DNA from: Nitrospirota bacterium
Lineage (GTDB): Bacteria > Nitrospirota > Nitrospiria > 2-01-FULL-66-17
Reading direction: 5' to 3'
Assembly: GCA_016201825.1 (NCBI GenBank)
Contig: JACQCD010000121.1
Span: 1,753 to 65,752 of the forward strand
Length of the DNA stretch: 64,000 bases
The notes under the pieces are model-generated. The model was not told the origin of the DNA. It saw nothing but the letters and a program-made list of their open reading frames with translations, and searched no databases. The position numbers were made by a program, and so were the translations under genes. Numbering within the stretch: the stretch's first letter is position 1; each line of letters begins with the position of its first letter. Positions 5,018-57,388 of this stretch are shown here, piece after piece.

Positions 5018-5039
5018 TATCGTCGCCGCGCGGGCGCTG

Positions 5040-5777
5040 CTACACTCGGGAGAGAGCGCACGCCTGCGCCACACCGTCACGGTAGGCAATCCACAGCTCC
5101 AGCGACCGCTCCAGCGCGTGGACAACCCTCTGCTGGGCCTCGGCGGTCGACGCGTGGTCGAGCACCATCTTCCATGCGTCTTGGCGGTGAAGGCCTTCCA
5201 CCGCCCCATGGGCGCGGATGAGGTCGAGGTAGCGGGGTGCGACGCCGTGATACTTCACCAGGGGATGGTTGGCGATCTTTTTCTCGACGTCGGGCTCGTC
5301 CCGCGATGTGCCGTTCAGGACCGCGCGTTCGTGGACGCTTCCCTCGACGAAGATCGTGGTTACGGCCGCGCCTTCGATCCAGGATCCTCCGGTCGTGATG
5401 TGGTCGAGCCAGCGTCGGTAGGCCGCGCTCTCGGGCAGGAGCGAGACGTGTTCGAAGTCGGCCGGAGCATACCCGACCCCCTCCATCAAGTAGAGAAACA
5501 GGTCGGGGTGCGAGCGTCCACGCGTGAGGCCTCCGGTTTCTTCTTCATAGAGGTTTTCCGCCAACGCTCTGCGGACGCTGATCGGTGGATTCTTGCCGTG
5601 AACGCGGGAGAGCAGAACCGGAAAGTCCCGGACGTACACGGCGTACTCTTGTTGGAAGTGGACCTTGAGTTGAGCCGGGGTGATCTTCCCCCCGGCGAAC
5701 CACGTCCAGGCCCAGTGATCTTTCCGGTCCATGATGGTGAACAGGCGCTCTCGAAACGCCTCGCGTGACTCGGTCAT
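5040..5777 (-). CDS. heme-oxygenase-fold PqqC/TenA/CADD-like iron-dependent redox protein
   Basis: MTESREAFRERLFTIMDRKDHWAW…FQQEYAVYVRDFP…ENLYEEETGG…SHPDLFL, typical of the PqqC/CADD family. Start taken at the ATG at 5777. Confidence 0.6.
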   Translation of the reverse strand: MTESREAFRERLFTIMDRKDHWAWTWFAGGKITPAQLKVHFQQEYAVYVRDFPVLLSRVHGKNPPISVRRALAENLYEEETGGLTRGRSHPDLFLYLMEGVGYAPADFEHVSLLPESAAYRRWLDHITTGGSWIEGAAVTTIFVEGSVHERAVLNGTSRDEPDVEKKIANHPLVKYHGVAPRYLDLIRAHGAVEGLHRQDAWKMVLDHASTAEAQQRVVHALERSLELWIAYRDGVAQACALSRV

Positions 5778-5965
5778 CGTCGGTGTGCTCCACGTGATTA
5801 AGCGAGGAGCATTGTAGCACAAGGCTCTCTCAGAAAAAGAGGCGGGAACCGGCCGCGCCGGGTTTCAACACACCGCCGCCCGTGCTCTCACAAACCGAGA
5901 CGGCGAGCGCCAGCTTGGCGGGGCTTTTCCGCTTGTTGGCAGATGTCGAAATTGCATACGGGCTG

Positions 5966-5995
5966 TTGACAAAGCTTCGGCACGCGGCTTACAAT
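5966..5995 (+). promoter_or_regulatory. sigma70-type promoter TTGACA-N18-TACAAT; the -10 ends 5 nt before the ATG at 6001 (leaderless transcript implied)
   Basis: TTGACA at 5966-5971 and TACAAT at 5990-5995, read directly. No Shine-Dalgarno sequence can fit between the -10 and the ATG. Confidence 0.55.
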
Positions 5996-6000
5996 CCGCC

Positions 6001-6339
6001 ATGCAGATTGGGATTCTGTTGACTACGAGTCCCGACCACGAAAATTCGTATCTCGTGGGGAGGCTCTCCGAGGCGTGGCTCAAGCAAGGGCATCAGGTTG
6101 AATTGTTTCTGATGGGTGAGGGTGTGTACAATGGGATGGCTGTCCACTCGCCCAGGCGACCGTATGCCGTGCTGCCCACCTTGCTCGGCTTGGGGGTGAA
6201 GGTCTCCGTGTGTGGCGTGACGGCGGAGGCCCGGGGGCTGGCGGAGAGCAACCTTTATCCCGGCATCGAGATCGCCAGTCAGTATGAGTTGTCCAAGATC
6301 GTGGACCGGTCTGATCGCTTCTTGACGTTTGGCGACTGA
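6001..6339 (+). CDS. DsrE/TusD-like sulfur-relay protein
   Basis: 112 aa. MQIGILLTTSP… and …KVSVCGVTAEARGL (TusD/DsrE-type Cys context). Confidence 0.75.
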   Translation: MQIGILLTTSPDHENSYLVGRLSEAWLKQGHQVELFLMGEGVYNGMAVHSPRRPYAVLPTLLGLGVKVSVCGVTAEARGLAESNLYPGIEIASQYELSKIVDRSDRFLTFGD

Positions 6340-6341
6340 TC

Positions 6342-6686
6342 GTGAAAGCCGTGGTAGTGGCCGTCCGTAGCAGCCCGATGACGACGACCCATGTTCATGA
6401 GGCGCTTCGCATGGCGTTGGGTTTGACCCTGTCAAACCACGAAGTGACCGTGGCGTATGTGGGGGACGGCGCGGCCGCCGCGCTCCATCTGGATGGGCCT
6501 ACGGTGCAGCGTCCCGCGCTGACAGAGTCGATCGAGCTCCTCGATGCGTGCCGAATCCGGGAGATGGTCGAACTGGATGCCCTGCCTGCTCAGTGTCGAG
6601 CGAAGGTGCGATCCCGGGTTGAGTCGTGTTCTCGCTCCGGCCTGGTCGATCTTCTGATGAAGGCCGATGTGGTGATGACATGGTAG
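6342..6686 (+). CDS. DsrF/TusC-like sulfur-relay protein
   Basis: 114 aa. MKAVVVAVRSSP…EALRMALGL… Size and position (2 nt after the DsrE-like gene) match the middle subunit of DsrEFH/TusBCD. Confidence 0.65.
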   Translation: MKAVVVAVRSSPMTTTHVHEALRMALGLTLSNHEVTVAYVGDGAAAALHLDGPTVQRPALTESIELLDACRIREMVELDALPAQCRAKVRSRVESCSRSGLVDLLMKADVVMTW

Positions 6687-6943
6687 CGGGAGGTGCCTTG
6701 CACATAATCAGGAAACGAGATGATGCGTTCGCGGCGGCGGTGATTGCCGAACAGCGTCGCAAGGGGCCGGTGGGTGTGGTGTTGGTTCAGGATGGGATCC
6801 TTGCAGACGTGTCGCCGTCGGTTGACGTGTATGTGAATGGTGAGGATGCGGCGGCGCGGGGAGTGGACACGCCGTACCGCCGGGTGGGCTATGAGGAAAT
6901 TGCTCGCTTCGTGGCGGATGCATCGAGCGTGATGGTGTGGTAG
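6680..6943 (+). CDS. DsrH/TusB-like sulfur-relay protein
   Basis: 87 aa from the ATG at 6680, which overlaps the previous stop. …LHIIRKRDD…VLVQDGI…. Confidence 0.6.
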   Translation: MVAGGALHIIRKRDDAFAAAVIAEQRRKGPVGVVLVQDGILADVSPSVDVYVNGEDAAARGVDTPYRRVGYEEIARFVADASSVMVW

Positions 6944-6954
6944 GAGAATAAGGC

Positions 6955-7197
6955 ATGGCGATTGGGTATACCGTCGACGAGCGTCTGGATTGTAAAGGTC
7001 TGAATTGCCCGCTTCCCGTGATCAAAACGAAAAAGGCGCTTGAAAAACTGGCGGTAGGGCAGGTCCTGGAGATGGTTGCGACCGATCCTGGTTCCAAGTC
7101 AGATATGGCGGCCTGGTCGAAGAGCACGGGGCATGAGTTGCTCGAGACGAAAGAGGAACCAGGGCTGTTTATGTTTTACGTGCGCAAAACGAAGTGA
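6955..7197 (+). CDS. tusA: TusA/SirA-family sulfurtransferase
   Basis: 80 aa. LDCKGLNCPLPVIKTKKAL contains the CPxP active-site motif. Confidence 0.85.
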   Translation: MAIGYTVDERLDCKGLNCPLPVIKTKKALEKLAVGQVLEMVATDPGSKSDMAAWSKSTGHELLETKEEPGLFMFYVRKTK

Positions 7198-7247
7198 TCG
7201 GTCTCCTCGGGATTCGGCGCTGGATGGGAGAGGTGAAGGAGTAGCGT

Positions 7248-7847
7248 ATGGCGGTGACCACACAAGAACTCGATCAGATGGTGGCGGCGAAAGTGAAGGA
7301 ATTGGCGGAACATCGTCTGGAGCAGATGGTCCGCGAGCAGGTGCGGGCGGTCTTGGATGCCGAGGCCCAAAAATCCGCTCGGCCGAAACGGGTGGCGATC
7401 GTGTCGTCCAAAGGAACGCTCGACGCTGGGTATCCCCCCCTGATCCTCGCGACGACCGCCGCCGCGCTCGATATGGAGGTCGGAGTCTTCTTCACGTTTT
7501 TCGGGCTCCACATCCTGAAGAAAAAAGGTCTGGATAATTTGAAGTTCGTGCCAGTGGCGAACCCGGCGATGCCGATGCCAATGCCCAACTTGTTAGGGGC
7601 GTTGCCCGGGATGACCGGGTTGGCGACCCTGATGATGAAGCAGACGATCAAGCAGAAGAACATTGCGTCGATTCCCGAGCTGATGGATGTCGCAAAAGAA
7701 AGCGGGGTCAAGCTCTGGCCGTGCCAGATGACGATGGACATGATGGACATCAAACGGGAAGACCTTATCGACGGGCTGGAAGAACCGGTGGGCGCCGCCA
7801 CCTTTTTGGAGTTTGCTTCCCACGCTGATATCACCCTGTATGTGTAA
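7248..7847 (+). CDS. DsrE/DsrF-like family protein (DsrE2/YrkE-like, COG2210-type)
   Basis: 199 aa. N-terminal coiled segment, then KRVAIVSSKGTLD…LWPCQMTMDMMDI, the conserved Cys context of this family. Confidence 0.7.
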   Translation: MAVTTQELDQMVAAKVKELAEHRLEQMVREQVRAVLDAEAQKSARPKRVAIVSSKGTLDAGYPPLILATTAAALDMEVGVFFTFFGLHILKKKGLDNLKFVPVANPAMPMPMPNLLGALPGMTGLATLMMKQTIKQKNIASIPELMDVAKESGVKLWPCQMTMDMMDIKREDLIDGLEEPVGAATFLEFASHADITLYV

Positions 7848-11358: not shown

Positions 11359-11606
11359 CAGCCCCGTTTTTTTGTGACGTCCCGTTCGGGGGACTGTGAA
11401 CTCGGTTCCGTGGATGTTGGGTGAAGGCTGTCCGTGGGTTGGTGGTGTTTCCCGCCGCGTTCGAATGCCCTGTCCTTCGTGTGGACTTCATCGGAATCGA
11501 ACACGCCGTGTGGTCGAGTGAATACCGGGGTCAATGGTTCGTCTGAATGGTGAGGACGAGTCCATCGGAAAGAACGATGGAACAGGCAATCAAAGGGAGG
11601 AGTGGC

Positions 11607-12428
11607 ATGAACGCTCGTAGTCGTGTGGCAGGAGTGGTGTTTGGAGTGGTGGCCTTGGCAACCGCGTCGATGGCCAAGGCGGAGGGGGGGTATACGGAAG
11701 CGCCGGTGGCCGACGGGGGAACCTTGGCTGGCAAGGTGGTGTTTAAGGGGGCGGTGCCTGCGCCGAAAACATTCGACTTTGCCAAATTTCCTAACCCGGG
11801 ATTCTGCGAAAAAACCGATTCGGACGGCAAGGGCCATCGCGTGGTTCAAGAGGTGAAAGTCGGCAAGGACAACGCCTTGAAGGACGTGGTCGTGTACATG
11901 GAGGGCATTGAGAAGGGTAAACCCTTCAAGTTCGGAGGGACCGACGTGAAGGCCAACGGCTGCCGGTTTATGGTTCAGGGGCCCTCCAGCTTTGCGGGCG
12001 TGGTCGTGAAAAAGGCGGAGATTCGCATCGAAAATACGGACGCGGACCCCAGCGATCCCAAGGCGGCGACGGGCGTGCTCCACAACCCCCACGGCTATGA
12101 AGTCGCCGGGGCTAGCAGCAGCACGATCTTCAATCTTCCGCTGCCGGAGAAGGGGCAGGTCATCAAGAAACCGGTGACGCTGCGAAAGAAAGAGAGCGTG
12201 TTTAAGATCGAGTGCGATCAACACAACTTCATGCAGGCGTTCTTCCAGCCGGTCGACAACCCCTACTATGCGATCGTCGACGAGGACGGGACATTCAGCA
12301 TCGACGGTATTCCGCCGGGCACCTACGAGGTCCATGCCTGGCACCCGACGTTGGGTCTCCAGGAGGCCAAGGTGACGATCGCGGCGAAGGGAACGGCCAA
12401 GACCGATTTCGCGTTCGCGGCAAAATAA
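11607..12428 (+). CDS. secreted cupredoxin-like protein with candidate type-1 Cu ligands plus a C-terminal Ig-like (carboxypeptidase-regulatory-like) domain
   Basis: RBS GGGAGGAG upstream of the ATG at 11607. Signal peptide VVFGVVALATASMAKA. LHNPHGYEV … IECDQHNFM gives a C-x2-H-x2-M pattern (nt 12213-12233). The C-terminus DGTFSIDGIPPGTYEVHAW is CarboxypepD_reg-like. Confidence 0.55.
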   Translation: MNARSRVAGVVFGVVALATASMAKAEGGYTEAPVADGGTLAGKVVFKGAVPAPKTFDFAKFPNPGFCEKTDSDGKGHRVVQEVKVGKDNALKDVVVYMEGIEKGKPFKFGGTDVKANGCRFMVQGPSSFAGVVVKKAEIRIENTDADPSDPKAATGVLHNPHGYEVAGASSSTIFNLPLPEKGQVIKKPVTLRKKESVFKIECDQHNFMQAFFQPVDNPYYAIVDEDGTFSIDGIPPGTYEVHAWHPTLGLQEAKVTIAAKGTAKTDFAFAAK

Positions 12429-12552: not shown

Positions 12553-13494
12553 ATGGACGGATCCTCTGGTCCGGGCCCCATCAAAAAGGACGCGCTGTTT
12601 TACGGAATGATTCTGGCGTTCCTGGCGTTTGTGCTGATGCTGGTGTTTTTAGGGTACGCCATGATTCAGTCGCGTGCGTCAAGCCGACTGGCGGCACAGC
12701 TCGTCTCCGAACCCACCGCCGTGGTCCAGACCGAACACTGGGACTACAGCAAATTGCAGGTGGTCAAAGACGAGTTTGGCGCGGGAATGGTGTTGGTGCC
12801 CGCGGGGCCGTTCCTCATGGGCAGTCCTCCCGGCGAAGGGGATCAAGATGAGATACCCCAACGCGGTGTGTACGTCGACGCGTTCCGGATCGATCTCTAC
12901 GAAGTGACCTTCAGGCAATATGCTCCGTTCGTCTCCGCAACGGGAGCCGCGAAGCCCGTCATCCCGGTGCTCCAAGACGATCCCGCGAAGCTGATGGCGC
13001 CCGATCAGCCGGTGGTGGCGGTGTCGTGGACCCAGGCGCGAGATTACTGTCGGTGGCTCGGAAAGCGCCTGCCGACCGAAGCGGAGTGGGAGAAGGCGGC
13101 GCGGGGAGACCGCGGGGCGAAATGGCCATGGGGCCCCGCCTTTGGCCCGGGCCTGGCGAATATTCAGGGCGAAGAGGACGGCTACCGGTACACCGCGCCC
13201 CCAGGCTCATTCCCCGGCGGTCGCAGCGCGTACGGCGTGTACGACATGGCTGGCAACGTGGCTGAATGGGTCGCCGATTGGTACGATCAGACGTACTATC
13301 TTGGCGCGCCATTCGAGTCGCCGACCGGGCCGACCAGCGGCAAGCACCGTGTCTACCGTGGAGGCTCGTGGAACGACGGGCCGTCAGACGTCAGGGCCGC
13401 CAAACGTTTTGCGGCAGCTCCCCATCAAACGAGCGCAGTGATCGGATTTCGGTGCGCCAAGGACGCCACACCGGACAAGGCGGGATCAGAGTAA
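12553..13494 (+). CDS. membrane-anchored FGE-sulfatase-fold (SUMF1/NirV/PvdO-like) protein, paralogue 1
   Basis: N-terminal TM FYGMILAFLAFVLMLVFLGYAMI. MVLVPAGPFLMG…RLPTEAEWEKAARG…YDMAGNVAEW…YRGGSWNDG…IGFRCAKD. No C-x4-C catalytic pair is visible. Confidence 0.8.
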   Translation: MDGSSGPGPIKKDALFYGMILAFLAFVLMLVFLGYAMIQSRASSRLAAQLVSEPTAVVQTEHWDYSKLQVVKDEFGAGMVLVPAGPFLMGSPPGEGDQDEIPQRGVYVDAFRIDLYEVTFRQYAPFVSATGAAKPVIPVLQDDPAKLMAPDQPVVAVSWTQARDYCRWLGKRLPTEAEWEKAARGDRGAKWPWGPAFGPGLANIQGEEDGYRYTAPPGSFPGGRSAYGVYDMAGNVAEWVADWYDQTYYLGAPFESPTGPTSGKHRVYRGGSWNDGPSDVRAAKRFAAAPHQTSAVIGFRCAKDATPDKAGSE

Positions 13495-13700: not shown

Positions 13701-13730
13701 TTGACTTTGAGGCCGCCCGATTTTTATAAT
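13701..13730 (+). promoter_or_regulatory. sigma70-type promoter TTGACT-N18-TATAAT
   Basis: TTGACT at 13701-13706 and TATAAT at 13725-13730. The short leader carries GGAG before the ATG at 13747. Confidence 0.6.
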
Positions 13731-13746
13731 GCGGCCGGAGTCTACC

Positions 13747-13899
13747 ATGTACGAGTTAGGCATTGGGCATTACCTCTTTTACCCTCTCGCGATTTTTCTC
13801 TTCAGCGCGATCTTTTTCCTGTCCGGTTACCGCGTTGGGCGTCGACGTGAACGCAGTCGGGCGCTGTCGCCGGCCCTGGGCGCGGAGGGCGGACGGTAA
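13747..13899 (+). CDS. 50-aa small membrane protein (first of three paralogous-looking genes)
   Basis: Own translation: MYELGIGHYLFYPLAIFLFSAIFFLSGYRVGRRRERSRALSPALGAEGGR. The stop overlaps the next start (TAATG). Confidence 0.5.
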   Translation: MYELGIGHYLFYPLAIFLFSAIFFLSGYRVGRRRERSRALSPALGAEGGR

Positions 13900-14144
13900 T
13901 GCGGATGCGGTTTTATCTCATCGTCATCTTAGTGCTGGCGTCGGCGGCCATGCTGGTGGATGCCGTACTCGGCAAGCTGTACATCAGGTACATGATCCTC
14001 TTCTCCGGGGCGGTGTTCCTGTGGGGGATGGCGGTCGGCCAGCGATCCGAGCAGGCGTGGATCCGCCGGCGGGATAGGTTGGCTCGGCGGGGGACGGGGG
14101 CCGCTCCGCGCCGCGCGCGAATGACGGAGGAGGTTACGAAGTGA
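13899..14144 (+). CDS. 81-aa small membrane protein (second of three)
   Basis: ORF track. MRMRFYLIVILVLASAAMLVDAV…ILFSGAVFLWGMAVGQRSEQAWIRRRDRLARRG. Two hydrophobic helices and an Arg-rich tail. Confidence 0.55.
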   Translation: MRMRFYLIVILVLASAAMLVDAVLGKLYIRYMILFSGAVFLWGMAVGQRSEQAWIRRRDRLARRGTGAAPRRARMTEEVTK

Positions 14145-14359
14145 AGCACTTGTTCTACGCGTTTTATGTGTCGTTCTACGCGGGCGCGATGTTTGTGGCG
14201 GGATTGTTTTTCGGGCAATTCATGGAGAGGCGGTGGGCTGCTCGGGAGGCAGCGGAAGCCGTTGACGCGGCCATGGCCGGGCCGATCGCAGACAACGAGC
14301 TCGTCTTAGAGGAGGCGCCGATCGTTCTGTCCGGCAACTCGCACCGTCCTTCCCGCTGA
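14141..14359 (+). CDS. 72-aa small membrane protein (third of three)
   Basis: ORF track. The GTG start overlaps the previous stop (GTGA). MKHLFYAFYVSFYAGAMFVAGLFFGQFMERRWAAREAAEA…. Confidence 0.5.
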   Translation: MKHLFYAFYVSFYAGAMFVAGLFFGQFMERRWAAREAAEAVDAAMAGPIADNELVLEEAPIVLSGNSHRPSR

Positions 14360-14440: not shown

Positions 14441-15463
14441 ATGAGTCGTCTCTTGAAGTGGCTCTATCTGGCCGTGGTGTTCGCCATCGTCGCCATCCTC
14501 CAAGTCGGTATCTCCCGAACGGGGCGGGTCCCAGGCAGCGCTGATCGCGAAGAGGGATATACCTCCTTGGCGACGAAGATCAAGCAGGCCGAAGAGGGGA
14601 TGAAAAAGGCCGAGGCTCAACTCGCCGCCGTGACGATCGATCCTGAATACGATCGGATGGTCACGATTCCGGCGGGATCCTTCCAGCTTGGAGACCGCGA
14701 CGGCGGAGCGATCGAGCAGCCGGAACGCGCCGTGTTTTTATCCTCCTACCGCATCGACGTGTACGAGACGACGTTTGCGCACTATTACGCCTTCATGGCC
14801 GCCACGGGGCATCGCAAACCGCGACTGGCGGGGTATCTCGGGGTCGAAAGTCGGGACCTGCCGCTCCTCATGAATCCGTTCAACCCGGCGGTGGGCGTGT
14901 CGTGGGACGATGCGATGGCGTATTGCGTGTGGAAGGGCAAGCGTCTTCCCAGCGAAGCGGAATGGGAGCGTGCGGCCAAAGGGACGGGGCCTCGATCGTG
15001 GCCGTGGGGCGATGAAGCCGATCCGCGCTTCGCCAATTTCGTTGGAGCTGAGGATGGCTTCAGATACAGCGCCCCGGTCGGGGCGTTCCGTCAGGATAAG
15101 AGCCCCGAGGGCGCCTATGACATGGCGGGCAACGCGATGGAGTGGACCGCGGATTGGTTCGACGAGCGCTACTACGCCGTCTTGCCGGCTCGGGATCCTC
15201 CCGGTCCTCCCAACGGCCAAGAGCGGGTGATTCGAGGAGCGTCGTGGAACGATTCGATCCAGCGTGGACAGACCACGACCCGTTTCAAAATGGATCCGAC
15301 GTTCCGGGACGTGACGATCGGTTTCCGCTGCGCTCAATCCATCACCCCTGTCCGCCATGCCGAACCCCCTCCGAGAGCCGCCGTCGCCCCGGAAAATTTT
15401 TTGCTTGACACCCGTTTTGGGCTTTCCTATAATGCCGCTGTCCTTTCTCAGAAATACTCGTAG
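14441..15463 (+). CDS. membrane-anchored FGE-sulfatase-fold (SUMF1/NirV/PvdO-like) protein, paralogue 2
   Basis: N-terminal anchor WLYLAVVFAIVAILQVGI. MVTIPAGSFQLG…RLPSEAEWERAAKG…YDMAGNAMEW…IRGASWNDS…IGFRCAQS. No C-x4-C pair. Confidence 0.8.
   Translation: MSRLLKWLYLAVVFAIVAILQVGISRTGRVPGSADREEGYTSLATKIKQAEEGMKKAEAQLAAVTIDPEYDRMVTIPAGSFQLGDRDGGAIEQPERAVFLSSYRIDVYETTFAHYYAFMAATGHRKPRLAGYLGVESRDLPLLMNPFNPAVGVSWDDAMAYCVWKGKRLPSEAEWERAAKGTGPRSWPWGDEADPRFANFVGAEDGFRYSAPVGAFRQDKSPEGAYDMAGNAMEWTADWFDERYYAVLPARDPPGPPNGQERVIRGASWNDSIQRGQTTTRFKMDPTFRDVTIGFRCAQSITPVRHAEPPPRAAVAPENFLLDTRFGLSYNAAVLSQKYS
15405..15433 (+). promoter_or_regulatory. perfect consensus sigma70 promoter TTGACA-N17-TATAAT for the bd-like oxidase operon
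   Basis: TTGACA at 15405-15410 and TATAAT at 15428-15433. It lies inside the last codons of the upstream FGE-like ORF. Confidence 0.65.
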
Positions 15464-15485
15464 GGACTTCCTGGAGGGTTGTTGC

Positions 15486-15626
15486 ATGGAGAAAAAAGGG
15501 CATTCCGAAGAAGGCAAAGGCAGCCGCGCCGGCGCGGTCGTCTACATCGTTGTCGCGATCCTGTCCGTCTTTTTCTTCTATTGGTTCGGGAACATCGGCG
15601 CCTCCGGCGGTTACGGGGCGCATTGA
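15486..15626 (+). CDS. 46-aa single-TM micro-protein preceding the oxidase
   Basis: RBS CTGGAGGG. MEKKGHSEEGKGSRAGAVVYIVVAILSVFFFYWFGNIGASGGYGAH (internal start of ORF 15357..15626). Confidence 0.5.
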   Translation: MEKKGHSEEGKGSRAGAVVYIVVAILSVFFFYWFGNIGASGGYGAH

Positions 15627-15660
15627 CGGCTTAAGTCCATATCGAAAGGGCCTCTCGATT

Positions 15661-15780
15661 ATGAAGACGGTATTGATGTTGGCAGTCGCGATCACGGCGT
15701 GGTTTTTCTACTTCCAGGTCATCGACTGGTTTTTTATGAAGATCCAGGGGTTGAACTACTTTACGTTTCTGACACTGTAA
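15661..15780 (+). CDS. 39-aa single-TM micro-protein preceding the oxidase
   Basis: MKTVLMLAVAITAWFFYFQVIDWFFMKIQGLNYFTFLTL (internal start of ORF 15550..15780). Confidence 0.45.
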   Translation: MKTVLMLAVAITAWFFYFQVIDWFFMKIQGLNYFTFLTL

Positions 15781-15924
15781 CGACGTCGTTTGCTCCTGCC
15801 TAATCCCTGGGGCGGTGCGACGTTCTTGCTCAGGGGGTGTGTCCCACGGGGTGAGCTATTTCCTGATCGTTTCAGTTCGGCGGGGCGAGGGATCCTGCCC
15901 GGTCGGCTAAAAGAGGAGAAAGCC

Positions 15925-17856
15925 ATGAAGCTGATGAAAGCGGTGGGGAACGGGAAGAGGGGTTGGTCCCTCGTCATACTTGGCGTCATGGCGGCGCTGC
16001 TGCTCCTTCCCGTGGTTGTGGCGCTCGCGCCCGCGACGTCGCTTGCGGCAGACGAGGCCCCGGCCCAGGTTCAGAAAGGGAAGGACGTCTATTTTAAGAC
16101 CGAGGGAATCGTCTCTGGCCCCCCGGCTCCGCAGACGACAGCGAAAGATTATCCCTCCTACGATCTGCCGTATCCTCTGAGCGAAAGCCGCGTTATTGTC
16201 TGGACGATCGCCCAACAGCATCTCTACTTTGGGAGTTTCGTCCTTGCGGTGCCGATTTTTTGTATGATCATCGAGCTGGTCGGGATCATGTCGAAGGACC
16301 GGACCGTCGGAAAGCGCTACGACGATTTGGCGCACGACTTCGTTCGGATCTCCCTCACCGCCTATTCGGTGACCGCGATCCTGGGCGGTCTGTTGCTTTT
16401 CACGTTCATCACGCTGTACCCGGTGTTTTTCACCTACCTGACCTCGCTCTTTAAACCGTTTATGCACATTTACGCGTTGCTGTTTCTCGCCGAAAGCGGC
16501 ACCCTCTACATCTATTACTACGGGTGGGACCGCATGAACGACGGCGGATTTCTGAAATGGATTCACGCGACGCTGGGCATCTTGCTCAACGTCTTTGGTA
16601 GCACGCTCATGATGCTGGCCAATTCGTGGAGCAGCTTCATGATGTCGCCGGCCGGGGTGGATGAGAAGGGGCAGTACCTGGGCAACCTGGTTCATCTGCT
16701 GCATAACGCCCTCTGGAACCCCCTGAACGTGCACCGCATCATCGGCAACATGGTGTTTGGCGGTGGGATCGTGGTCGCGTACGCGGCGTACAAGTTCCTC
16801 TCCGCGAAGACCGAGCAGGAAAAAGCGTACTACGATTGGATGGGATACATCGCGATGTTTCTCGCGGTGGCGTCGCTCATCCCGTTGCCGTTTGCCGGCT
16901 ATTGGCTGATGCGTGAGGTCTACGCCTATCGTCAGCAGATGGGGATCACGCTGATGGGCGGTTTGCTGGCGTGGCTCTTCATCATTCAGGCGGTGTTGAT
17001 CGGGGCGTTGTTCTTCACCGTCAACTACTACCTCTTTAACGGCATGGGGCGTATGCGAGGTTCCGAGCCCTACCGCAAATACATCAAGTACATCCTCTTT
17101 TTGACCACCGCGGCCTTTCTCGTTTGGCTGACGCCTCACACCCTCGTGATGCGGGCGGCCGAGCTCAAGGCGATCGGCGGTCAGCAACACCCCGTGATCG
17201 GGAACTTCGGCGTGATGTCCGCGAAGAATGGTGCGGTCAACACCATGTTGATGACCACGATCATCTCCTTCATTCTGTACCAGCGCAGCAATAAGATCAT
17301 CGCCGTCCCCTGGGCCGCGTGGGGGAACGCCGCGATGATCGGGATGTTTGCCGTCGCCCTCGTCAATAACTGGTGGCTGGCCATCATGGGCTACTTCATT
17401 CCGGCGAACATCCGTGTCGGCTTATCCGTGCCCCAGGTGGTCGGGACCCTAACGTGCCTTTTCGTGGGGCTGGCTATCAACACCGCCATGATGCGTGGGG
17501 CAAAACTCACCGGACCGATCGAGTGGGGTAAGATTTCAGTCAGATCCCAATACGGGCTGTTCGCCTTAGGCGTGTCGTTTACCTGGCTCATGGCGCTCAT
17601 GGGGTACATCCGCTCCTCGGTTCGGCTCTTCTGGCACGCCATGGAGGTTTTTAGGGACAACTCTCCCTGGGCGTTTACTCATGCCATAGGGTTTGCGGCG
17701 AACGTGATGTCCTTCAACGTGCTGATCTTTTGGATCTTCACGCTCTTTGTCTTCTGGCTTGGCGAATTTTCGTCACATAAGACCGTACCGTCGATGGTCG
17801 ATGAGCGCCAACCTGTCGGACTTGGGCGGCCTGTTGTTGCGGGTGGATCGAAGTAG
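15925..17856 (+). CDS. cytochrome bd-like oxidase, CydA-like subunit (no cydB partner in the operon)
   Basis: RBS AGAGGAGAAAG upstream of the ATG at 15925. 643 aa, very hydrophobic. CydA-like stretches IAQQHLYFGSFVLAVPIF, LAESGTLYIYYYGWD, MMLANSWSSFMMSPAG. Extra N-terminal signal/anchor and extra C-terminal TM helices. Confidence 0.8.
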   Translation: MKLMKAVGNGKRGWSLVILGVMAALLLLPVVVALAPATSLAADEAPAQVQKGKDVYFKTEGIVSGPPAPQTTAKDYPSYDLPYPLSESRVIVWTIAQQHLYFGSFVLAVPIFCMIIELVGIMSKDRTVGKRYDDLAHDFVRISLTAYSVTAILGGLLLFTFITLYPVFFTYLTSLFKPFMHIYALLFLAESGTLYIYYYGWDRMNDGGFLKWIHATLGILLNVFGSTLMMLANSWSSFMMSPAGVDEKGQYLGNLVHLLHNALWNPLNVHRIIGNMVFGGGIVVAYAAYKFLSAKTEQEKAYYDWMGYIAMFLAVASLIPLPFAGYWLMREVYAYRQQMGITLMGGLLAWLFIIQAVLIGALFFTVNYYLFNGMGRMRGSEPYRKYIKYILFLTTAAFLVWLTPHTLVMRAAELKAIGGQQHPVIGNFGVMSAKNGAVNTMLMTTIISFILYQRSNKIIAVPWAAWGNAAMIGMFAVALVNNWWLAIMGYFIPANIRVGLSVPQVVGTLTCLFVGLAINTAMMRGAKLTGPIEWGKISVRSQYGLFALGVSFTWLMALMGYIRSSVRLFWHAMEVFRDNSPWAFTHAIGFAANVMSFNVLIFWIFTLFVFWLGEFSSHKTVPSMVDERQPVGLGRPVVAGGSK

Positions 17857-17924
17857 GGCGGTTCGTTTAGCGGTCAGCCCCTTCCCACTCGGGGCCGACT
17901 CTCTCAGGGATTAGGAGAACAACG

Positions 17925-19175
17925 GTGATTCCAGGAAAAGTCGGTTTGGCCGTCGGCACTGTCGCAGGTATCGCCTTCATTCGGTGGGCCACGTCTGGAG
18001 GGGGGACATTAAACCTGGCGTTGGCCCTTTTACTTACGGCGGTTTTCATCATGTGGTTGGGCTATATGATTCCCCCTGCCCGGATGATTTTGGTGAGCGT
18101 TGGGTTCTTTACGCTGATGAGCGGAATCTTCGCCAGCTACTCCAACTGGCTGCCCCAAGTTCGCGGCGAGGTGCCGGTCGTGGTCGTCGAGAAGGGCGGC
18201 GGAACCAAACCGGAAGACATGCCGGCCGACAAGTTGGCGGAGAAAGGGGCGGCGATTATCTTCGCTGATCCCGGCGCCCTCGAGGGCCAGGGGAAGGGTC
18301 AGTGTCCTCTTTGTCATGGTTTTAAAAAAGGTGCGCTCAGTGAACGTGCGCCAAACCTATCGGGGATTCCGCAACGCGCCGCCGAGCGGGTTAAGGATCC
18401 GCGATACCTAAAGCCGGATTCAGTCCAGACCGAATCCTTTTCGGGAAGTGGACGCGCAACCACCGCAGTCGAATACATCGCCGAATCTCACTCCTGTCCA
18501 AACTGTTTCATCGTTGCGGGCTATGGGGTTAAAGGGAGCAACGACCGCGAAAGTCCGATGCCAGTAATTTATAAGCCGCCGATCGAGCTGTCGATCGACG
18601 AACTGATCGCGGTGGATACATGGCTGTTCTATCGAGAGGGTGGCGATGTCCCGCCCGCTTCGGAGATTCGTGCCGCATACGAAAAATTCATCCCTGCGGC
18701 TGATCGTAAGGAGGCGCCCAAAGTAGAGGCTCCTGCGGCGCCAGGACCGGTGATTGCGATGGGCACGGATACGCCGGAGGATATGATCAAGAAGATGGGG
18801 TGTGGCGCTTGCCACACCATCCCGACCACGGCAAACAAATTCGGAGCCATCGGTCCGGTGCTGATCGAGAAAACGAATGCGCCGAAGCGAATCTCCTCGC
18901 CGGAATATCAGGCTCGGGTCAAGGCCGGGAAGGCTCACGCGACGACTCCCAAGCAGTACATCATCGAATCGATTATGAACCCGAGTGCGTTCATCGTGCC
19001 GGCCTTTGTGAATAAAGGGAACCCCGACGTGTCGATAATGCCTCCGGATTTCTCGAAGAAATTTACCTACGAGGCCGTGGAGAAGTTGGCGGACTTCCTT
19101 CTTTCCATTGACGCCGCTGCGGCCTCAAAAGACGGGATCAAGATCGACAAAGACGGTAGGAAGGCGGCCGGTTAG
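17925..19175 (+). CDS. membrane-anchored diheme c-type cytochrome
   Basis: 416 aa. About 3 N-terminal TM helices. CPLCH and CGACH motifs. RBS AGGAGA before the GTG at 17925. Confidence 0.8.
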   Translation: MIPGKVGLAVGTVAGIAFIRWATSGGGTLNLALALLLTAVFIMWLGYMIPPARMILVSVGFFTLMSGIFASYSNWLPQVRGEVPVVVVEKGGGTKPEDMPADKLAEKGAAIIFADPGALEGQGKGQCPLCHGFKKGALSERAPNLSGIPQRAAERVKDPRYLKPDSVQTESFSGSGRATTAVEYIAESHSCPNCFIVAGYGVKGSNDRESPMPVIYKPPIELSIDELIAVDTWLFYREGGDVPPASEIRAAYEKFIPAADRKEAPKVEAPAAPGPVIAMGTDTPEDMIKKMGCGACHTIPTTANKFGAIGPVLIEKTNAPKRISSPEYQARVKAGKAHATTPKQYIIESIMNPSAFIVPAFVNKGNPDVSIMPPDFSKKFTYEAVEKLADFLLSIDAAAASKDGIKIDKDGRKAAG

Positions 19176-19262
19176 CGCGTGGAGCTCATGGCGGGGGAAA
19201 GCCTCGGCGACCCCTCGCTACTGTAGCGGTCTTTTTTAACCTCTCTTCTGGAGGAGACTACG

Positions 19263-20195
19263 TTGGGTAAGATATGGATTCCCGGCATGATGCCGATCGA
19301 GCTCCTGCTCATCCTCGCCACGACATTTTTCGTCTTCGTTGGGGTCGGATGGCTTTTGAAAACGCAGAATCGCAGCATCCCCAAGTTTGGCCAAGCGATT
19401 CTGATTTGGCTCACGGCCTTCGTCATCCTGAAGTTCGTGCTCTATCCGCCGATTCCCTCGGCCCTCATGAAGACCTACATGGGGTTGATCACCCTTGTGC
19501 TGTTCTTGCTGGTTTCGGCCGACGAGGAGTCGTGGACCGATTTCAAACGTCCGATCTTGAAGACCCTCGCGGGGGAGACTCCCGGGTATCGCGGGGTGCG
19601 GACGATCACGTTGGTGGCGCTTCCTCTGTTAGCTGGAATGGGGACCTATAACAATATCGTGCCGAAGTTTGAGGAGCCGATTGAACTTCGGACCGTCCAC
19701 CCCGCGCCGCCGGCTGCGGTGAAAGTCCACGACCTCAAGGGTGGCGACAAGACGTTCACGCTTCAGACCGCACAGAACCCGTTCCGCGTAGACGAGGATG
19801 GCCAGTACTCCCGTGATGTTCAGCAGAAGCATGTCAACGATAACCCGTTCGATCCCAATGCGTCCAAGTACATGCAGTACGTGCGTGAAGGGGGGGCGAT
19901 CTTCTTCCAGAACTGCCACTTCTGTCACGGCGATAATTTGGACGGGCGGGGGATGTTTGCTTTTGCGTTCAATCCGATCCCGGCGAATTTTTCTGATCCG
20001 GGTACGATCGCCCAGCTTCAAGAGACCTTTGTGTTCTGGCGGGTATCGAAGGGAGGCCCCGGGTTGCCGAGGGAGGGATTTCCCTGGGCGTCGGCGATGC
20101 CGCCGTGGGAGCAACACCTCACCACCGATGAAATGTGGAAGGCGATTCTTTTTGAATACTGGCACACCGGGTTCTATCCGCGAACTTGGGATTGA
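19263..20195 (+). CDS. membrane-anchored monoheme c-type cytochrome
   Basis: 310 aa. Several N-terminal TM helices. Single CHFCH motif in a class-I-like C-terminal domain. RBS GGAGGAG before the TTG at 19263. Confidence 0.75.
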   Translation: MGKIWIPGMMPIELLLILATTFFVFVGVGWLLKTQNRSIPKFGQAILIWLTAFVILKFVLYPPIPSALMKTYMGLITLVLFLLVSADEESWTDFKRPILKTLAGETPGYRGVRTITLVALPLLAGMGTYNNIVPKFEEPIELRTVHPAPPAAVKVHDLKGGDKTFTLQTAQNPFRVDEDGQYSRDVQQKHVNDNPFDPNASKYMQYVREGGAIFFQNCHFCHGDNLDGRGMFAFAFNPIPANFSDPGTIAQLQETFVFWRVSKGGPGLPREGFPWASAMPPWEQHLTTDEMWKAILFEYWHTGFYPRTWD

Positions 20196-20234
20196 TCAAC
20201 GCGTGATCAGGTCTCTTTAAGGGGGAGCTCGACA

Positions 20235-21905
20235 ATGAAGGGGATTGTCAGTGTAGGTCGATGGGGCAAGATACTCCTCGCAGGGGGGTTGGTGGTCACA
20301 GTTCTGGGCGTGTCTGTGGTGTTCACGACCGCTCAAACCGGCAAAGCGCCGGAGGCACCGAAAGCTCAGATGCCCGGCAAAGCAAGCCCCGAGGATCTGG
20401 CTGCGGGGAAGGCGATTTACTTCCGCAAATGCGTGTGGTGCCACGGTCCCGAAGGGGCCGGGGATGGCCCGGCAGCCGATCGTCTGTGGCCCCGTCCCCG
20501 GAACTTTACTCAGGGCACGTTTAAGATCCGCCACACGGCAAGCGGCGAGCTCCCTCTGCTCGATGATTTATTTCTGACCGTGACCAATGGATTACCTGGA
20601 TCGGCAATGCCTTCATGGGAAGGGATTTTGTCCGACAAACAGCGTCACCAGGTGGTTGAGTTTGTCCGGACCGAACTCGTAAAGGACCGCGATTTCACCG
20701 ACAAGGAAAACGAAACATTTACCCCGATCAGCTTCGGGAAACAAGTTGCGACCTCGAAAGAAAGTATCGAACGAGGTCGAGAAGTATATATGAACAAGGG
20801 GAAGTGCGTCGAGTGTCACGGTCCGGACGCGCGAGGGGACGGGAACGCGACGCAAAAAGACGAGTGGGGGTTCCCGATTCGTCCCGCCGATCTCCACAAG
20901 TGCTGGAACTTCCGCGGCAACCGCCGTGATCCCTACAATCCCACAAACATCTTTCGCGAAGTGTCGACGGGGCTGAACGGGACCCCCATGCCGTCATTTG
21001 CCGAAGCGTTGAGTTCTGATCAGCGTTGGGATGTCGCCAACTTTGTCATTTCGCTCTGTCCCAAGAAAAACATCGATCCGTTGACCACCAAGCCCAACAA
21101 TGACTTCGTGATCAAGGCGACGTTCGTCAAGGGCGAACTTCCGACGAGTCCCGATGATGCCGTCTGGAAAGATGTCTCCGCGGCCTACGTTGGCCTCGGG
21201 TCCCAGATCATGCACAAACCGAGGAATTTCGTTCGGCTGGTGGACGACGTGTGGGTTCGTTCCCTCTATAACGACAAGCAGGTGATGTACCTTTTAGAGT
21301 GGGACGATCGGACCAAGAGCCTGGGAACGCCGGAGGCAGTCGCGCAGACGGCTGATTTTAAGGAGACCCCACCCGCCGGGGAGCCGATCGCGATGCGGCA
21401 ATATCCCGTGTTCAACGACGCGGTGGCGATCCAGTTCCCCTCCCACTGGGAGACCCTGAGTGCTCCCGAGAAACCGCGTTTCGTCTTCGGTGACGCGAAG
21501 AACTCGGTCGACGTCTGGAAGTGGGAAGCCGACGGTTCCACGAAGCTCTATACCGGCCAGGGTTTCGATAAGCTGGAAGTAAGAGCGGGAGACTCGGTGA
21601 AGACGCCGTTCGTGGGCTTCAAGGACGGGGTGTGGCGGGTCATGTTTACGCGCACTCTGACCACGGATGACAAGGAACACGACGTCCAGTTCACCACCGG
21701 CAAGTACATTCCGACATCCTTCTTCGTGTGGGATGGCAACAACGGGGACCATGGGTTAAAAATGTCGATCTCAACCTGGTATTACACGATTCTCCTGCCC
21801 CCCGTGCCGAAGAAGGCCTACATCTATCCGGTGTTCGCCGCGATCTTTGTCATCGGCTTGCAGTTCTGGATGGTGTCGAAATTCAAGAAAGGGTCCAAGA
21901 AGTAG
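20235..21905 (+). CDS. diheme cytochrome c fused to an EB_dh (ethylbenzene-dehydrogenase gamma / DOMON-like heme-b) domain with a C-terminal TM anchor
   Basis: 556 aa. CVWCH and CVECH. Then …VRSLYNDKQVMYLLEWDD…AVAIQFPSH…VDVWKWEADG… (EB_dh-like). C-terminal helix IYPVFAAIFVIGLQFWMV. Confidence 0.75.
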   Translation: MKGIVSVGRWGKILLAGGLVVTVLGVSVVFTTAQTGKAPEAPKAQMPGKASPEDLAAGKAIYFRKCVWCHGPEGAGDGPAADRLWPRPRNFTQGTFKIRHTASGELPLLDDLFLTVTNGLPGSAMPSWEGILSDKQRHQVVEFVRTELVKDRDFTDKENETFTPISFGKQVATSKESIERGREVYMNKGKCVECHGPDARGDGNATQKDEWGFPIRPADLHKCWNFRGNRRDPYNPTNIFREVSTGLNGTPMPSFAEALSSDQRWDVANFVISLCPKKNIDPLTTKPNNDFVIKATFVKGELPTSPDDAVWKDVSAAYVGLGSQIMHKPRNFVRLVDDVWVRSLYNDKQVMYLLEWDDRTKSLGTPEAVAQTADFKETPPAGEPIAMRQYPVFNDAVAIQFPSHWETLSAPEKPRFVFGDAKNSVDVWKWEADGSTKLYTGQGFDKLEVRAGDSVKTPFVGFKDGVWRVMFTRTLTTDDKEHDVQFTTGKYIPTSFFVWDGNNGDHGLKMSISTWYYTILLPPVPKKAYIYPVFAAIFVIGLQFWMVSKFKKGSKK

Positions 21906-21932
21906 ATCTGAGGGTCGTTGAATCAGGACCGA

Positions 21933-21968
21933 AGAGGCCCCGCGGGAACGCGGGGCCTCTGTCTTTTT
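21933..21968 (+). terminator. strong rho-independent terminator ending the oxidase operon
   Basis: AGAGGCCCCGCG-GGAA-CGCGGGGCCTCT (12-bp perfect stem) followed by GTCTTTTT. Confidence 0.85.
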
Positions 21969-21988
21969 AACGGCCGCGCCGCGCGGGC

Positions 21989-22879
21989 GTGATGAGAGTT
22001 GGCTGTAAGAGGGGAGCGCGAGAGAAGAGCCCGGTGGGACAAAAGTCTGAAATTTTATTCTTACTCCTCGGGCAGCTTTCTGTGGGGGGTATCGTCCTGC
22101 TCGCGGTGATTTCGGGCCGCCAACTTGGCCTGAGCTTTTTCCGCTTGAACGGTCTGATCTTCTTTCTGCTCATGGGCGCGGCGATCCCGGGCATTCCTGT
22201 GCCCGAATCGGTGGCGGCCGCTGGATCCGCGAGCGAAGTGGCGAGGATTTTTCTCGGCACCTGGCCCGGGCTGACCATTACCTTGACCCTCGCGTACTCG
22301 ATCAGTCTCTTTGCCTACGTCGTGACCTTCTGGGTCAAGCAAGAGACCCAGGCCACTCGGTGGTTGTTCGCGGCCGCGGTGTTCGGAATTGGCTTGGTCG
22401 TGGCCAGCGCCGAGTCGTATGCCCAACGGATGTCGGACGGCCTCATCGCATCCCTGATTCCGATGAACTTCCTCCTCTCGACGTTGGTTCTGGGGTCGGC
22501 GATGCTGGGGATGTTGCTCGGGCATCGATACCTGACCAACCCCCACCTCCCGCTTTCCCATCTCAATTTTCTGGCGTGGATCTTTTTCATCGCGGTGATT
22601 CTGCAGGGGACGATGACGGTGGTGAGCTTTCTCCTTGGAGGCGACTGGGCGGTGATCGGGGCGGCCCTTCGCCTGGAGAGTTTTCTGGGGTTGTTCTTCT
22701 GGATTCGTGTGGTGATCGGCATCGCCGTGCCGCTGGCGCTGGCGGCCATGATCCTCAACACCATCCGCTATCGCGCCAATATGTCGGCGACGGGCCTCCT
22801 GTACATTGCCGTGCTCATGGTCATGGCCGGGGAGGCTTTTTCGCGGTATCTCTTGCTCTCGGACGCGATTCTGCTGTAA
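21989..22879 (+). CDS. polytopic membrane protein (about 8 TM), possibly an NrfD/DmsC-like anchor
   Basis: 296 aa. Eight hydrophobic segments by eye. The C-terminus …MVMAGEAFSRYLLL resembles the C-terminal helix of NrfD/DmsC-type anchors. The family call is tentative. Confidence 0.55.
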   Translation: MMRVGCKRGAREKSPVGQKSEILFLLLGQLSVGGIVLLAVISGRQLGLSFFRLNGLIFFLLMGAAIPGIPVPESVAAAGSASEVARIFLGTWPGLTITLTLAYSISLFAYVVTFWVKQETQATRWLFAAAVFGIGLVVASAESYAQRMSDGLIASLIPMNFLLSTLVLGSAMLGMLLGHRYLTNPHLPLSHLNFLAWIFFIAVILQGTMTVVSFLLGGDWAVIGAALRLESFLGLFFWIRVVIGIAVPLALAAMILNTIRYRANMSATGLLYIAVLMVMAGEAFSRYLLLSDAILL

Positions 22880-22929
22880 ACGGCTCTTGCGTCGACCGCG
22901 ACCGGGGAGCCAGTTCGGGGACACCTCCC

Positions 22930-23640
22930 GTGCCCAAATCGTCTTTTCGTACGACCGTCGAGTCGATCGACGTCCTCACGCCGACCGTGAAGGTCTTCCG
23001 CCTCCGGTTTGATCCGGGAGCGGCATTCGATTTCGTGGCCGGCCAGTATGTGATGGTCGATATTCCCCACGGCGATGCGGTCGTGCAGAAGGCGTATTCG
23101 ATCGCGTCCTCTCCGTCGGAACCGGGGACGATCGATCTGTGCATCAAGCTCGTTGAAGGGGGATACGCCTCGACCTATTTCCATCAATCCGTCCACGAGG
23201 GAACCGTGCTGACCGTCTACGAAGCGCAGGGCACGTTCGTCGATCGTGGCGCTCCGCGCGAGCGGGCGTACGTCGCCTCGGGTACGGGTATCGCCCCGAT
23301 TCGCAGCATGATCCGCCGGCTCTACGAGAGGAAGGGATTCGACGAACCGATGTGGCTCTTTTTCGGGGTTCGGTACGAGGACGAGATCTTGTACGAGGAG
23401 GAGTGGCGACGCCTGGCCGCCGAGCACCCCACCTTTCGCTTCATGCCGACCGTCAGTCGGCCGAAGACGTGGGCCGGGGACGTCGGATGGGTGCAGGACC
23501 TCCTGCGCAGGTACCTCACGGCTCCCGAACAGAAGGAAGCCTACGTGTGCGGCGTGGTGCCGATGGTCAAGGCGGTCAAGCCTCTCCTCATCGAATTGGG
23601 CGTGCCGCGCGCGCAGATCCACACCGAAAAATACACGTAA
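22930..23640 (+). CDS. FNR-like FAD/NAD(P)H oxidoreductase (FAD_binding_6 + NAD_binding_1 type)
   Basis: KAYSIASSP (RxYS-type FAD motif) and ASGTGIAPIRSM (NAD(P)H motif). GTG at 22930 is the only start candidate downstream of the membrane gene. The upstream part of ORF 22360..23640 is a shadow frame. Confidence 0.8.
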   Translation: MPKSSFRTTVESIDVLTPTVKVFRLRFDPGAAFDFVAGQYVMVDIPHGDAVVQKAYSIASSPSEPGTIDLCIKLVEGGYASTYFHQSVHEGTVLTVYEAQGTFVDRGAPRERAYVASGTGIAPIRSMIRRLYERKGFDEPMWLFFGVRYEDEILYEEEWRRLAAEHPTFRFMPTVSRPKTWAGDVGWVQDLLRRYLTAPEQKEAYVCGVVPMVKAVKPLLIELGVPRAQIHTEKYT

Positions 23641-52408: not shown

Positions 52409-52416
52409 GGTCCGAC

Positions 52417-57367: not shown

Positions 57368-57388
57368 CGCGCAGCCTCGGAGGATCGG

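Follow-up and report, generated by a model that had tools for sequence, protein, structure and literature searches.

What a CydA-like protein does when it is encoded without CydB and beside several cytochromes c is the question raised by an operon at positions 15405-21968 of a 64,000-nucleotide stretch of DNA from a Nitrospirota bacterium (assembly GCA_016201825.1, contig JACQCD010000121.1, positions 1,753 to 65,752; hereafter the window). The operon comprises two genes for micro-proteins, a gene for a CydA-like protein of 643 residues and three genes for membrane-anchored cytochromes. We conclude that it is an intact copy of an already described respiratory cluster and no new kind of system, and that its CydA-like protein belongs, by its residue signature, to OR-N2, a subfamily within the cytochrome bd superfamily. 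We further give about an even chance to the reading that the operon encodes a self-contained, quinol-independent oxidoreductase that would transfer electrons from periplasmic donors to O2 on the OR-N2 scaffold.

The preliminary description of this DNA had placed six genes between a perfect consensus promoter and a strong terminator, and our analysis bears out both boundaries as well as the coordinates and content of all six open reading frames (ORFs). The sigma-70 promoter (TTGACA-17-TATAAT; 15405-15433, plus strand), which has a T-tract upstream, agrees with the consensus at 12 of 12 positions and is the sole such match in a scan of positions 14500-23000, where 7 sites scored at least 9/12 against 2.6 expected. 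When this region is aligned across five related genomes, both hexamers (-35 and -10), the upstream T-tract and the eight bases GCCGCTGT after the -10 element are invariant amid flanks that drift, which indicates a phylogenetic footprint and excludes a chance match. At the other end, an intrinsic terminator (21933-21968, plus strand) consists of a hairpin at 21933-21960, with a 12-bp stem that includes 10 GC pairs, followed by a T-tail. Its folding energy is -31.5 kcal/mol (z = -5.3 relative to shuffled sequences), and the hairpin is retained with compensatory substitutions in close relatives and replaced by a different GC hairpin in distant ones. Between these signals lie six co-directional plus-strand genes with intergenic gaps of 34-141 nt. 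Promoter-like and terminator-like matches inside the operon are weak, and a weak hairpin at 19215 folds no better than shuffled sequence, which suggests that the six genes are likely co-transcribed. The 141-nt spacer between the second micro-protein gene and the cydA-like gene likewise folds no better than shuffled sequence, and an Rfam search of the window found no RNA element. Antisense ORFs such as that of 427 codons at 15907-17190 on the minus strand were rejected as genes and are best viewed as high-GC artefacts, given that the coding pattern of GC content at third codon positions and the homologues are found only in the plus-strand frames.

The CydA-like protein is encoded at 15925-17856 on the plus strand. 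One database entry, from a Nitrospirae metagenome-assembled genome (MAG), is 100% identical to it. Pfam detects Cyt_bd_oxida_I (PF01654) in the N-terminal half (E = 2.8e-13), covering only positions 3-245 of the 418 in the profile. A single-sequence phmmer search of the PDB found no CydA; a profile of the family matched the Geobacillus and mycobacterial CydA proteins over transmembrane (TM) helices 1-5 (5doq_A, E = 4e-14; 9r2g_A), and hhalign aligned residues 88-296 with residues 8-212 of E. coli CydA at a probability of 93.8%. An AlphaFold2 (AF2) model built from 62 homologues (predicted local distance difference test score, 85.4; predicted template modelling score, 0.85) was compared with known structures by Foldseek, for which the top 10 matches were all CydA chains (TM-score on target, 0.47-0.60) and CydB chains ranked far lower; no other kind of chain was matched. 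Together with hydropathy, the model predicts an N-terminal signal or anchor helix, a short periplasmic beta segment and 13 TM helices. The extra N-terminal helix of the preliminary description is present as claimed; read from its sequence, it resembles a Sec signal peptide (a KR-rich n-region and an ending ...TSLA/ADE) and may be cleaved rather than retained.

Both the end of the homology at TM5-6 and the model, in which about 27 residues (319-345) join the helices where the canonical Q-loop of about 150 residues sits, indicate that the protein lacks a Q-loop and, by this criterion, a quinol site. The ligand positions of canonical bd enzymes are partly kept. Relative to E. coli CydA, His99 corresponds to His19, Glu190 to Glu107, His214 to His126 and His270 to His186, but the positions of Glu99 and Glu445 are occupied by Tyr183 and Ser564. 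Met431 is possibly the equivalent of Met393, an assignment that follows the alignment of Murali et al. The absence of cydB from the operon, as first described, also stands: hhalign of the family profile against CydB gave a probability of 0.4%, the best match in a tblastn search of the window with E. coli CydB had an E value of only 0.2, and Pfam places every large operon product in a family other than CydB.

Murali et al. divide the bd superfamily into three groups, qOR, OR-C and OR-N, and characterise OR-N2 by 14 helices, the lack of a quinol site and an operon in which an EbdC homologue accompanies several cytochromes c. Fifteen signature positions for OR-N2 are tabulated in their Supplementary Table 6 (H269, M430/N434, S563, H99, Y183, E190, L227, H213, W569, I235, Y197, Y199, G155 and I158). 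Thirteen of these are identical in the window protein, with numbering offset by +1 after residue ~200 (H99, Y183, E190, Y197, Y199, H214, H270, M431/N435, S564 and W570 among them), and the two mismatches, S236 for I235 and L158 for I158, fall in columns that are variable, which argues for OR-N2 membership. Nothing essential sets the window protein apart from the published subfamily; its host belongs to a Nitrospiria order outside Nitrospirales.

The family is large, with more than 6,500 relatives in clusters at 90% identity and 926 representatives at 50% identity. A set of residues (R89, W93, H99, E117, Y183, E190, Y197, Y199, W201, H214, W264, H270, R271, M344, H405, E413, H422, M431, K434, W534, R563, R567, W570, H571 and D578) is kept almost without exception in the window protein, the Nitrospira orthologue and paralogue, and the versions from anaerobes and Aquificaceae. 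The sole exception is a divergent paralogue of the JACQBZ01 lineage (L045), in which three positions differ. Three of these residues, His405, His422 and His571, lie on the periplasmic face and are invariant from Nitrospira to Aquificaceae but absent from canonical CydA, and an OR-N1-like paralogue lacks the loop that spans H405-K434.

Downstream of the cydA-like gene, three plus-strand genes encode the partner cytochromes. The first product (17925-19175) is a dihaem cytochrome c of 416 residues with two or three N-terminal TM helices, whose haem motifs are CPLCH at residue 127 and CGACH at residue 293, the latter in a SoxX-like domain; the first haem domain occurs in all lineages, and the second only in Nitrospiria and one Fibrobacteria locus. 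Next is a monohaem cytochrome c of 310 residues (19263-20195) with three N-terminal TM helices and CHFCH at residue 218, and every complete locus has kept both its CxxCH motif and its place in the gene order. The third (20235-21905), named alt_NxrC_2 in Nitrospira, has 556 residues and joins a Kustc0457-like dihaem-c domain (CVWCH and CVECH) to an EbdC/NxrC-like EB_dh domain and a C-terminal TM helix. Pfam finds EB_dh (PF09459; E = 1.4e-16) and two Cytochrome_CBB3 domains in this protein, and TIGR03477 matches it at E = 1.5e-23, a score below the curated cutoff. The dihaem-c domain matches PDB entry 6h5l_B, the dihaem cytochrome in a crystal structure of a Kuenenia complex with a HAO-like protein (E = 1e-47, or 2e-73 when a profile is used). 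In support of the EB_dh assignment, the profile also matches 7b04_C (E = 3e-23) and 2ivf_C (E = 2e-15). The operon therefore encodes five CxxCH motifs (2 + 1 + 2), the number originally reported, and they are conserved in orthologues. All five lie C-terminal to TM or signal segments, which places the redox domains of the partners in the periplasm as anchored domains.

The b-type haem that the preliminary description considered probable has a less certain basis. With EbdC and NxrC, the gamma subunits of type-II DMSO reductases (EB_dh, TIGR03477), the domain shares its fold and the motifs DAxAxQF, GD..PV..W.WKA and VWDG...S.W, but here one polypeptide combines it with a dihaem cytochrome c and a TM anchor, and no genes for alpha or beta subunits are adjacent. 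The axial ligands of haem b in EbdC are reportedly Met108 and Lys201 in the structure of Kloer et al. (2006). The column of Met108, which precedes an invariant Gly, holds Phe418 in the window protein and F, W, M, H, I or G across homologues, with Met in EbdC and in Kuenenia NxrC. The column of Lys201, near the C-terminus, holds Met510 with Lys509 adjacent; a Lys displaced by one position from that column is conserved in 10 of 14 sequences. The EB_dh domain is thus present as described, but its canonical Met ligand position is Phe, so that a haem b is plausible from the sequence and not secure.

Two short genes precede the cydA-like gene. The first (micro1; 15486-15626, plus strand), which has a GGAGGG Shine-Dalgarno sequence, encodes 46 residues with one TM helix and the motif GSRAGAxxYIVV...WFFYWFGNI, and is conserved in the related loci L001-L010. 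The second (micro2; 15661-15780, plus strand) encodes 39 residues with one TM helix and the motif WFFYFQxxDWxFMKxQGLxYF, and is conserved in L001-L010, L013 and L017. In a complete Nitrospira genome (L047), micro1 is recognisable in an ORF of 40 codons and micro2 in one of 67, and both of these precede the orthologous cydA-like gene. In Ca. Manganitrophus loci, tblastn did not detect either. Amino-acid conservation in the nearest 9-10 related loci and substitutions concentrated at third codon positions (7/1/19 by codon position for micro2 relative to L001) together indicate, at the level of sequence, that both are real genes. They match nothing in family libraries including Pfam and show no similarity to E. 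coli CydX. The micro-proteins are therefore candidate single-helix subunits that would be analogous to CydX but not homologous to it, and the two genes have gone unremarked in the modules described previously.

Most of this architecture has been reported elsewhere. The core order of CydA-like protein, cytochrome c, cytochrome c and dihaem-c/EB_dh protein is conserved across phyla, in loci of Nitrospiria, Manganitrophaceae, Thermodesulfovibrionales, Aquificaceae, Fibrobacteria and Thermodesulfobacteriota; in a Chloroflexi locus that is ended by the contig edge, only the first two core genes are visible. The N. moscoviensis cluster described as bd-like_3, two cytochromes c and alt_NxrC_2 (Mundinger et al., 2019; PMC6606698) has the same four genes in the same order. 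Its alt_NxrC_2 is reported to have a mass of ~62 kDa, a single TM helix and a pair of haem c motifs, and the cluster is among the 40 most-transcribed genes (PMC6606698). The Nitrospira orthologue in L047 (Nitrospira sp. YTPLAS18), which is 65-67% identical, has two FGE genes and the two small ORFs upstream and the same three cytochromes downstream. Some 3.7 kb upstream of the orthologous operon, that genome also contains a second OR-N2 copy (4434-6311; 625 residues, 51% identity), which fits the bd-like_4 duplication reported for Nitrospira; no Pfam annotation is recorded for it, and no second OR-N2 copy was found in the window. In Ca. Manganitrophus, the cluster TO_1 (Yu & Leadbetter; 10.1101/2021.11.15.468770) combines a bd-like protein of clade I with two cytochromes c and a cytochrome b in the periplasm, is ~60% identical with the same gene order and one FGE gene upstream, and is expressed at the 98th percentile (10.1101/2021.11.15.468770).

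More distant counterparts are known as well. Kuenenia stuttgartiensis kustd1709-kustd1712 encode dihaem, monohaem and dihaem cytochromes and a CydA-like protein, as does the window operon; that module lies among genes for nitrite oxidoreductase (NXR) in a strict anaerobe, whereas the window operon has no genes for molybdenum enzymes nearby. For the conserved cluster that includes Nitrospina, 14 helices, conserved haem b ligands, a lost quinol site and cupredoxin-like proteins had already been noted (PMC3578206). The preliminary description was thus right that this is a CydB-less bd-like protein with c-type partners, of the uncharacterised kind proposed for Nitrospira and its relatives, as the OR-N2 signature and the shared four-gene module attest. 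Its sense of novelty goes somewhat too far: the architecture, the missing quinol site and the cytochrome c and EbdC-like partners have all been on record since 2010-2013.

The host lineage bears on what the module is for. The closest loci belong to MAGs of the Nitrospiria orders 2-01-FULL-66-17 (91-92% identity) and JACQBZ01 (~78%), and a 2025 survey reports that non-Nitrospirales Nitrospiria do not encode nitrite-oxidising machinery. Searches by tblastn with E. coli NarG and NarH gave no match within 8 kb on either side of the module in 47 loci, and in the window gave only a weak match to a ferredoxin domain 29 kb away. Taken together, these observations indicate that the module is not simply an anchor for NXR, and that the label of alternative NxrC can describe a lineage-specific use at most. 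The occurrence of the module in a lineage reported to lack NXR also suggests a core function that is independent of nitrite oxidation.

Under the quinol-independent oxidase reading that we favour, in which the complex would face the periplasm, electrons from periplasmic carriers or dehydrogenases would be received by the anchored EB_dh/dihaem-c subunit together with the two cytochromes c held at the membrane. Soluble cytochromes c or a cupredoxin encoded nearby could act as donors, as could NXR in nitrite oxidisers. Electrons would then pass to a b558-like haem of the CydA-like subunit, with His270 and probably Met431 as ligands, and from there to a high-spin haem site at His99, where O2 would be reduced to water. 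Protons would be taken from the cytoplasm along what is kept of the bd proton path (Glu190 and His214), and such uptake would yield proton-motive force by charge separation, as in bd oxidases. The two micro-proteins would serve as single-helix accessory subunits. That the products form a single complex, that electrons flow in this direction and that O2 accepts them are inferences on our part.

Several observations support an oxidase. His99, His270, Glu190 and His214 are invariant or nearly so, even in distant lineages, the redox domains of the partners are all periplasmic, and the dihaem domain is homologous to an electron-transfer cytochrome of solved structure. The high transcription of the orthologues in the aerobic lithotrophs N. 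moscoviensis and Ca. Manganitrophus also favours this reading, as does the report that OR-N enzymes are the only oxygen reductases of several aerobic Nitrospirales. The CydA fold, the missing quinol site, the gene order shared across phyla, the independence from NXR and the conserved promoter count in its favour as well. The Nitrospira paralogue that lies beside an EB_dh protein without haem c motifs (L022 and L044), which by synteny appears to be of the NIDE0901/bd-like_2 type, is the one usually named an oxidase, and it has the same invariant residues as the window protein. The sequences therefore offer no basis for naming one OR-N2 paralogue an oxidase and another not. Other points weigh against the reading. 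According to the literature, no OR-N member has been purified or assayed. Glu99 and Glu445, which are important in canonical bd enzymes, are replaced by Tyr183 and Ser564, so a bd-type dihaem O2 site cannot be assumed, and the haem b of the EB_dh domain is uncertain. The module is also present in strict anaerobes, both in the nxr cluster of Kuenenia and in Thermodesulfovibrionales. Whereas Mundinger et al. prefer reverse electron flow for exactly this paralogue (PMC6606698), others assign the oxidase role to a pair of OR-N1 and OR-N2, and the window contains no OR-N1.

The module could instead work in the reverse direction and carry electrons from high-potential periplasmic cytochromes to the quinone pool, driven by proton-motive force, to supply reductant for CO2 fixation, in the manner of an alternative complex III run backwards. 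Beyond the proposal for N. moscoviensis, such a role has been put forward for the Nitrospina and Kuenenia clusters (PMC3578206); it would account for the module in anaerobes such as anammox bacteria, and the path through Glu190 and His214 could move protons either way. Reverse flow would nevertheless call for a quinone site, and none is recognisable: the Q-loop and all quinol-binding residues are absent, and family searches found no NrfD-, PetB- or NapH-like quinone-reactive subunit among the operon products. Together with the invariance of His99, a periplasmic-side residue at the position of the O2-site ligand of bd enzymes, this leads us to regard reverse flow as unlikely. A quinone-linked role of the ordinary kind, in a CydAB quinol oxidase for which cydB is elsewhere or was missed, is suggested by the database annotation of the protein as cytochrome ubiquinol oxidase subunit I. 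Canonical CydABX of E. coli and Geobacillus does share with the operon the fold of TM1-5, the equivalents of His19, His186, Glu107 and His126, and small single-helix genes. The homology is nevertheless confined to TM1-5, the Q-loop, Glu99 and Glu445 are missing, extra helices bring the total to 13-14 rather than nine, and neither the window nor the protein has any similarity to CydB. The partners are instead periplasmic cytochromes c and b, conserved in place of cydB across phyla, and the micro-proteins are unrelated to CydX. We consider an ordinary CydAB oxidase extremely improbable and effectively refuted.

A further possibility is that the module serves as the membrane anchor and electron outlet of a soluble periplasmic enzyme of the type-II DMSO-reductase family, similar to NXR, with the EB_dh protein as an alternative gamma subunit. 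The homology of the EB_dh domain to NxrC and EbdC, the co-regulation of the Kuenenia module with the nxr cluster that contains it and the Nitrospira name alt_NxrC_2 (PMC6606698) all point this way. For the present host, we judge it very unlikely, because the nearest genomes belong to orders reported without NXR, the NarG/NarH searches described above found no such gene near the module or in the window, and Mn oxidisers, Aquificaceae and Fibrobacteria carry the module too, which suggests at most a lineage-specific use of a general electron-entry domain. The changed acidic ligand positions (Tyr183 and Ser564) and the three additional periplasmic His residues could alternatively reflect a reductase for another oxidant, such as NO, H2O2 or nitrite, at a modified haem or haem-copper site that would act in detoxification or anaerobic respiration. 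The presence of the module in anaerobes, and the copper genes (NosL, NosDFY and cupredoxins) that flank it in some lineages without NosZ, are consistent with such a reductase. The copper genes may, however, just serve the neighbouring cupredoxins, and very high expression in aerobic lithotrophs is better suited to a main respiratory role, so we hold this to be quite improbable. Finally, the replacement of Glu99 by Tyr183, which is invariant, and of Glu445 by Ser564, the invariant His trio and the NosL/NosDFY neighbours without NosZ in some lineages could be read as signs that OR-N2 is a haem-copper-like hybrid on the bd scaffold and not a bd-type dihaem oxidase. In such a hybrid, His405, His422 and His571 might bind copper or an additional haem adjacent to the haem of His99; according to PMC6606698, Lucker et al. 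(2010) had already proposed a copper site for NIDE0901, a paralogue in Nitrospira. We treat the hybrid as a doubtful, sequence-derived idea; if true, it would constitute a third independently evolved architecture for cytochrome-c-driven reduction of O2 (or NO).

The genes upstream of the operon are part of its conserved neighbourhood. Outside the operon, a plus-strand gene at 11547-12428 encodes a secreted cupredoxin-like protein of 293 residues (His179, Cys223-x2-His226-x2-Met229) with a CarboxypepD_reg domain. Pfam detects only the C-terminal CarboxypepD_reg domain, and a family profile of the N-terminal part matches amicyanin and the blue-copper protein 5fc9_A. Homologues of this cupredoxin type adjoin the module in 30 of the 47 loci, in several phyla, and the protein fits the cupredoxin-like proteins of the conserved cluster in PMC3578206; it is a possible redox partner of the module. 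Two plus-strand genes encode membrane-anchored paralogues with an FGE-sulfatase domain. The first (12553-13494; Pfam E = 9e-60) is conserved upstream in Nitrospiria loci and L047, and the second (14441-15463; E = 1e-51) lies directly upstream in L001-L013, L017 and L047 and overlaps the operon promoter with its 3' tail. Both keep this position in Nitrospiria, Nitrospira included, and Ca. Manganitrophus has one FGE copy. Between the FGE genes of the window are three consecutive small hydrophobic ORFs (56, 81 and 72 residues; 13729-14359, plus strand) without a family match.

Other neighbourhoods are restricted to particular lineages. In 4-6 loci of Thermodesulfovibrionales and Aquificaceae, the module is flanked by NosD(-Fer4_5), NosF, NosY, thioredoxin, a transglutaminase-like protein and two copies of NosL, as in L038 (349-7812 and 12373-14786) and likewise in L021, L029, L032, L039 and L041. 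No NosZ was seen in these flanks, and an assignment of this neighbourhood to N2O reductase was rejected on that ground and because the association is limited to so few loci. In L026 (12386-14665) and 11 other distant loci, the genes after the module encode a universal stress protein and a radical-SAM/SPASM enzyme that ends in a PCP_red domain and could be a cofactor-modifying enzyme; a stand-alone PCP_red protein is encoded near the Nitrospira orthologue. Together, the NosDFYL and radical-SAM associations are a hint of copper handling, and perhaps of cofactor modification as well, but each is confined to certain lineages, and the presence of cupredoxins could be explanation enough.

The remainder of the window contains other genes, all on the plus strand. 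After the terminator (21989-23640) are a gene for a protein of 296 residues with ~8 TM helices and no family match and one for an FNR-like FAD/NAD(P)-binding reductase, a pair that is conserved only in the closest relatives (L003-L005). Three consecutive DsrE/DsrF-family genes at 6001-7847 could form a sulfur relay. In a fusion protein of 828 residues (49089-51575), two cNMP-binding domains and a 4Fe-4S dicluster domain are joined to a pyridine-nucleotide-disulphide oxidoreductase. A large multihaem cytochrome cluster (52318-62523) encodes an FHA protein of 588 residues with 10 CxxCH motifs, a lipoprotein-like ORF of 512 residues, an LVIVD-repeat protein of 1255 residues with 10 CxxCH motifs and a c554-like protein of 456 residues with 4-5 haem motifs. 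This cluster could be an extracellular or periplasmic electron-transfer system that feeds the respiratory chain.

Which enzyme is the main terminal oxidase, and which the route for reverse electron transport, in Nitrospira, Nitrospina, Ca. Manganitrophus and their relatives is a long-standing question in nitrification and lithotrophy, for which OR-N enzymes, none of them purified, are the leading candidates. To the known modules, this locus adds a host from an order reported to lack NXR, conserved micro-proteins along with twin FGE and cupredoxin-type neighbours, a Phe at the EB_dh ligand position and the invariant His trio. The operon sharpens the question by presenting a complete module, with its micro-subunit genes, behind a conserved consensus promoter and in a lineage reported to lack NXR. 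It also brings into view that paralogues called oxidase and reverse-flow are alike in every invariant residue, that the haem b ligand of the EB_dh domain is not conserved, and that a defined set of residues (His99, Tyr183, Glu190, His214, His270, His405, His422, Met431 and His571) is available for mutation.

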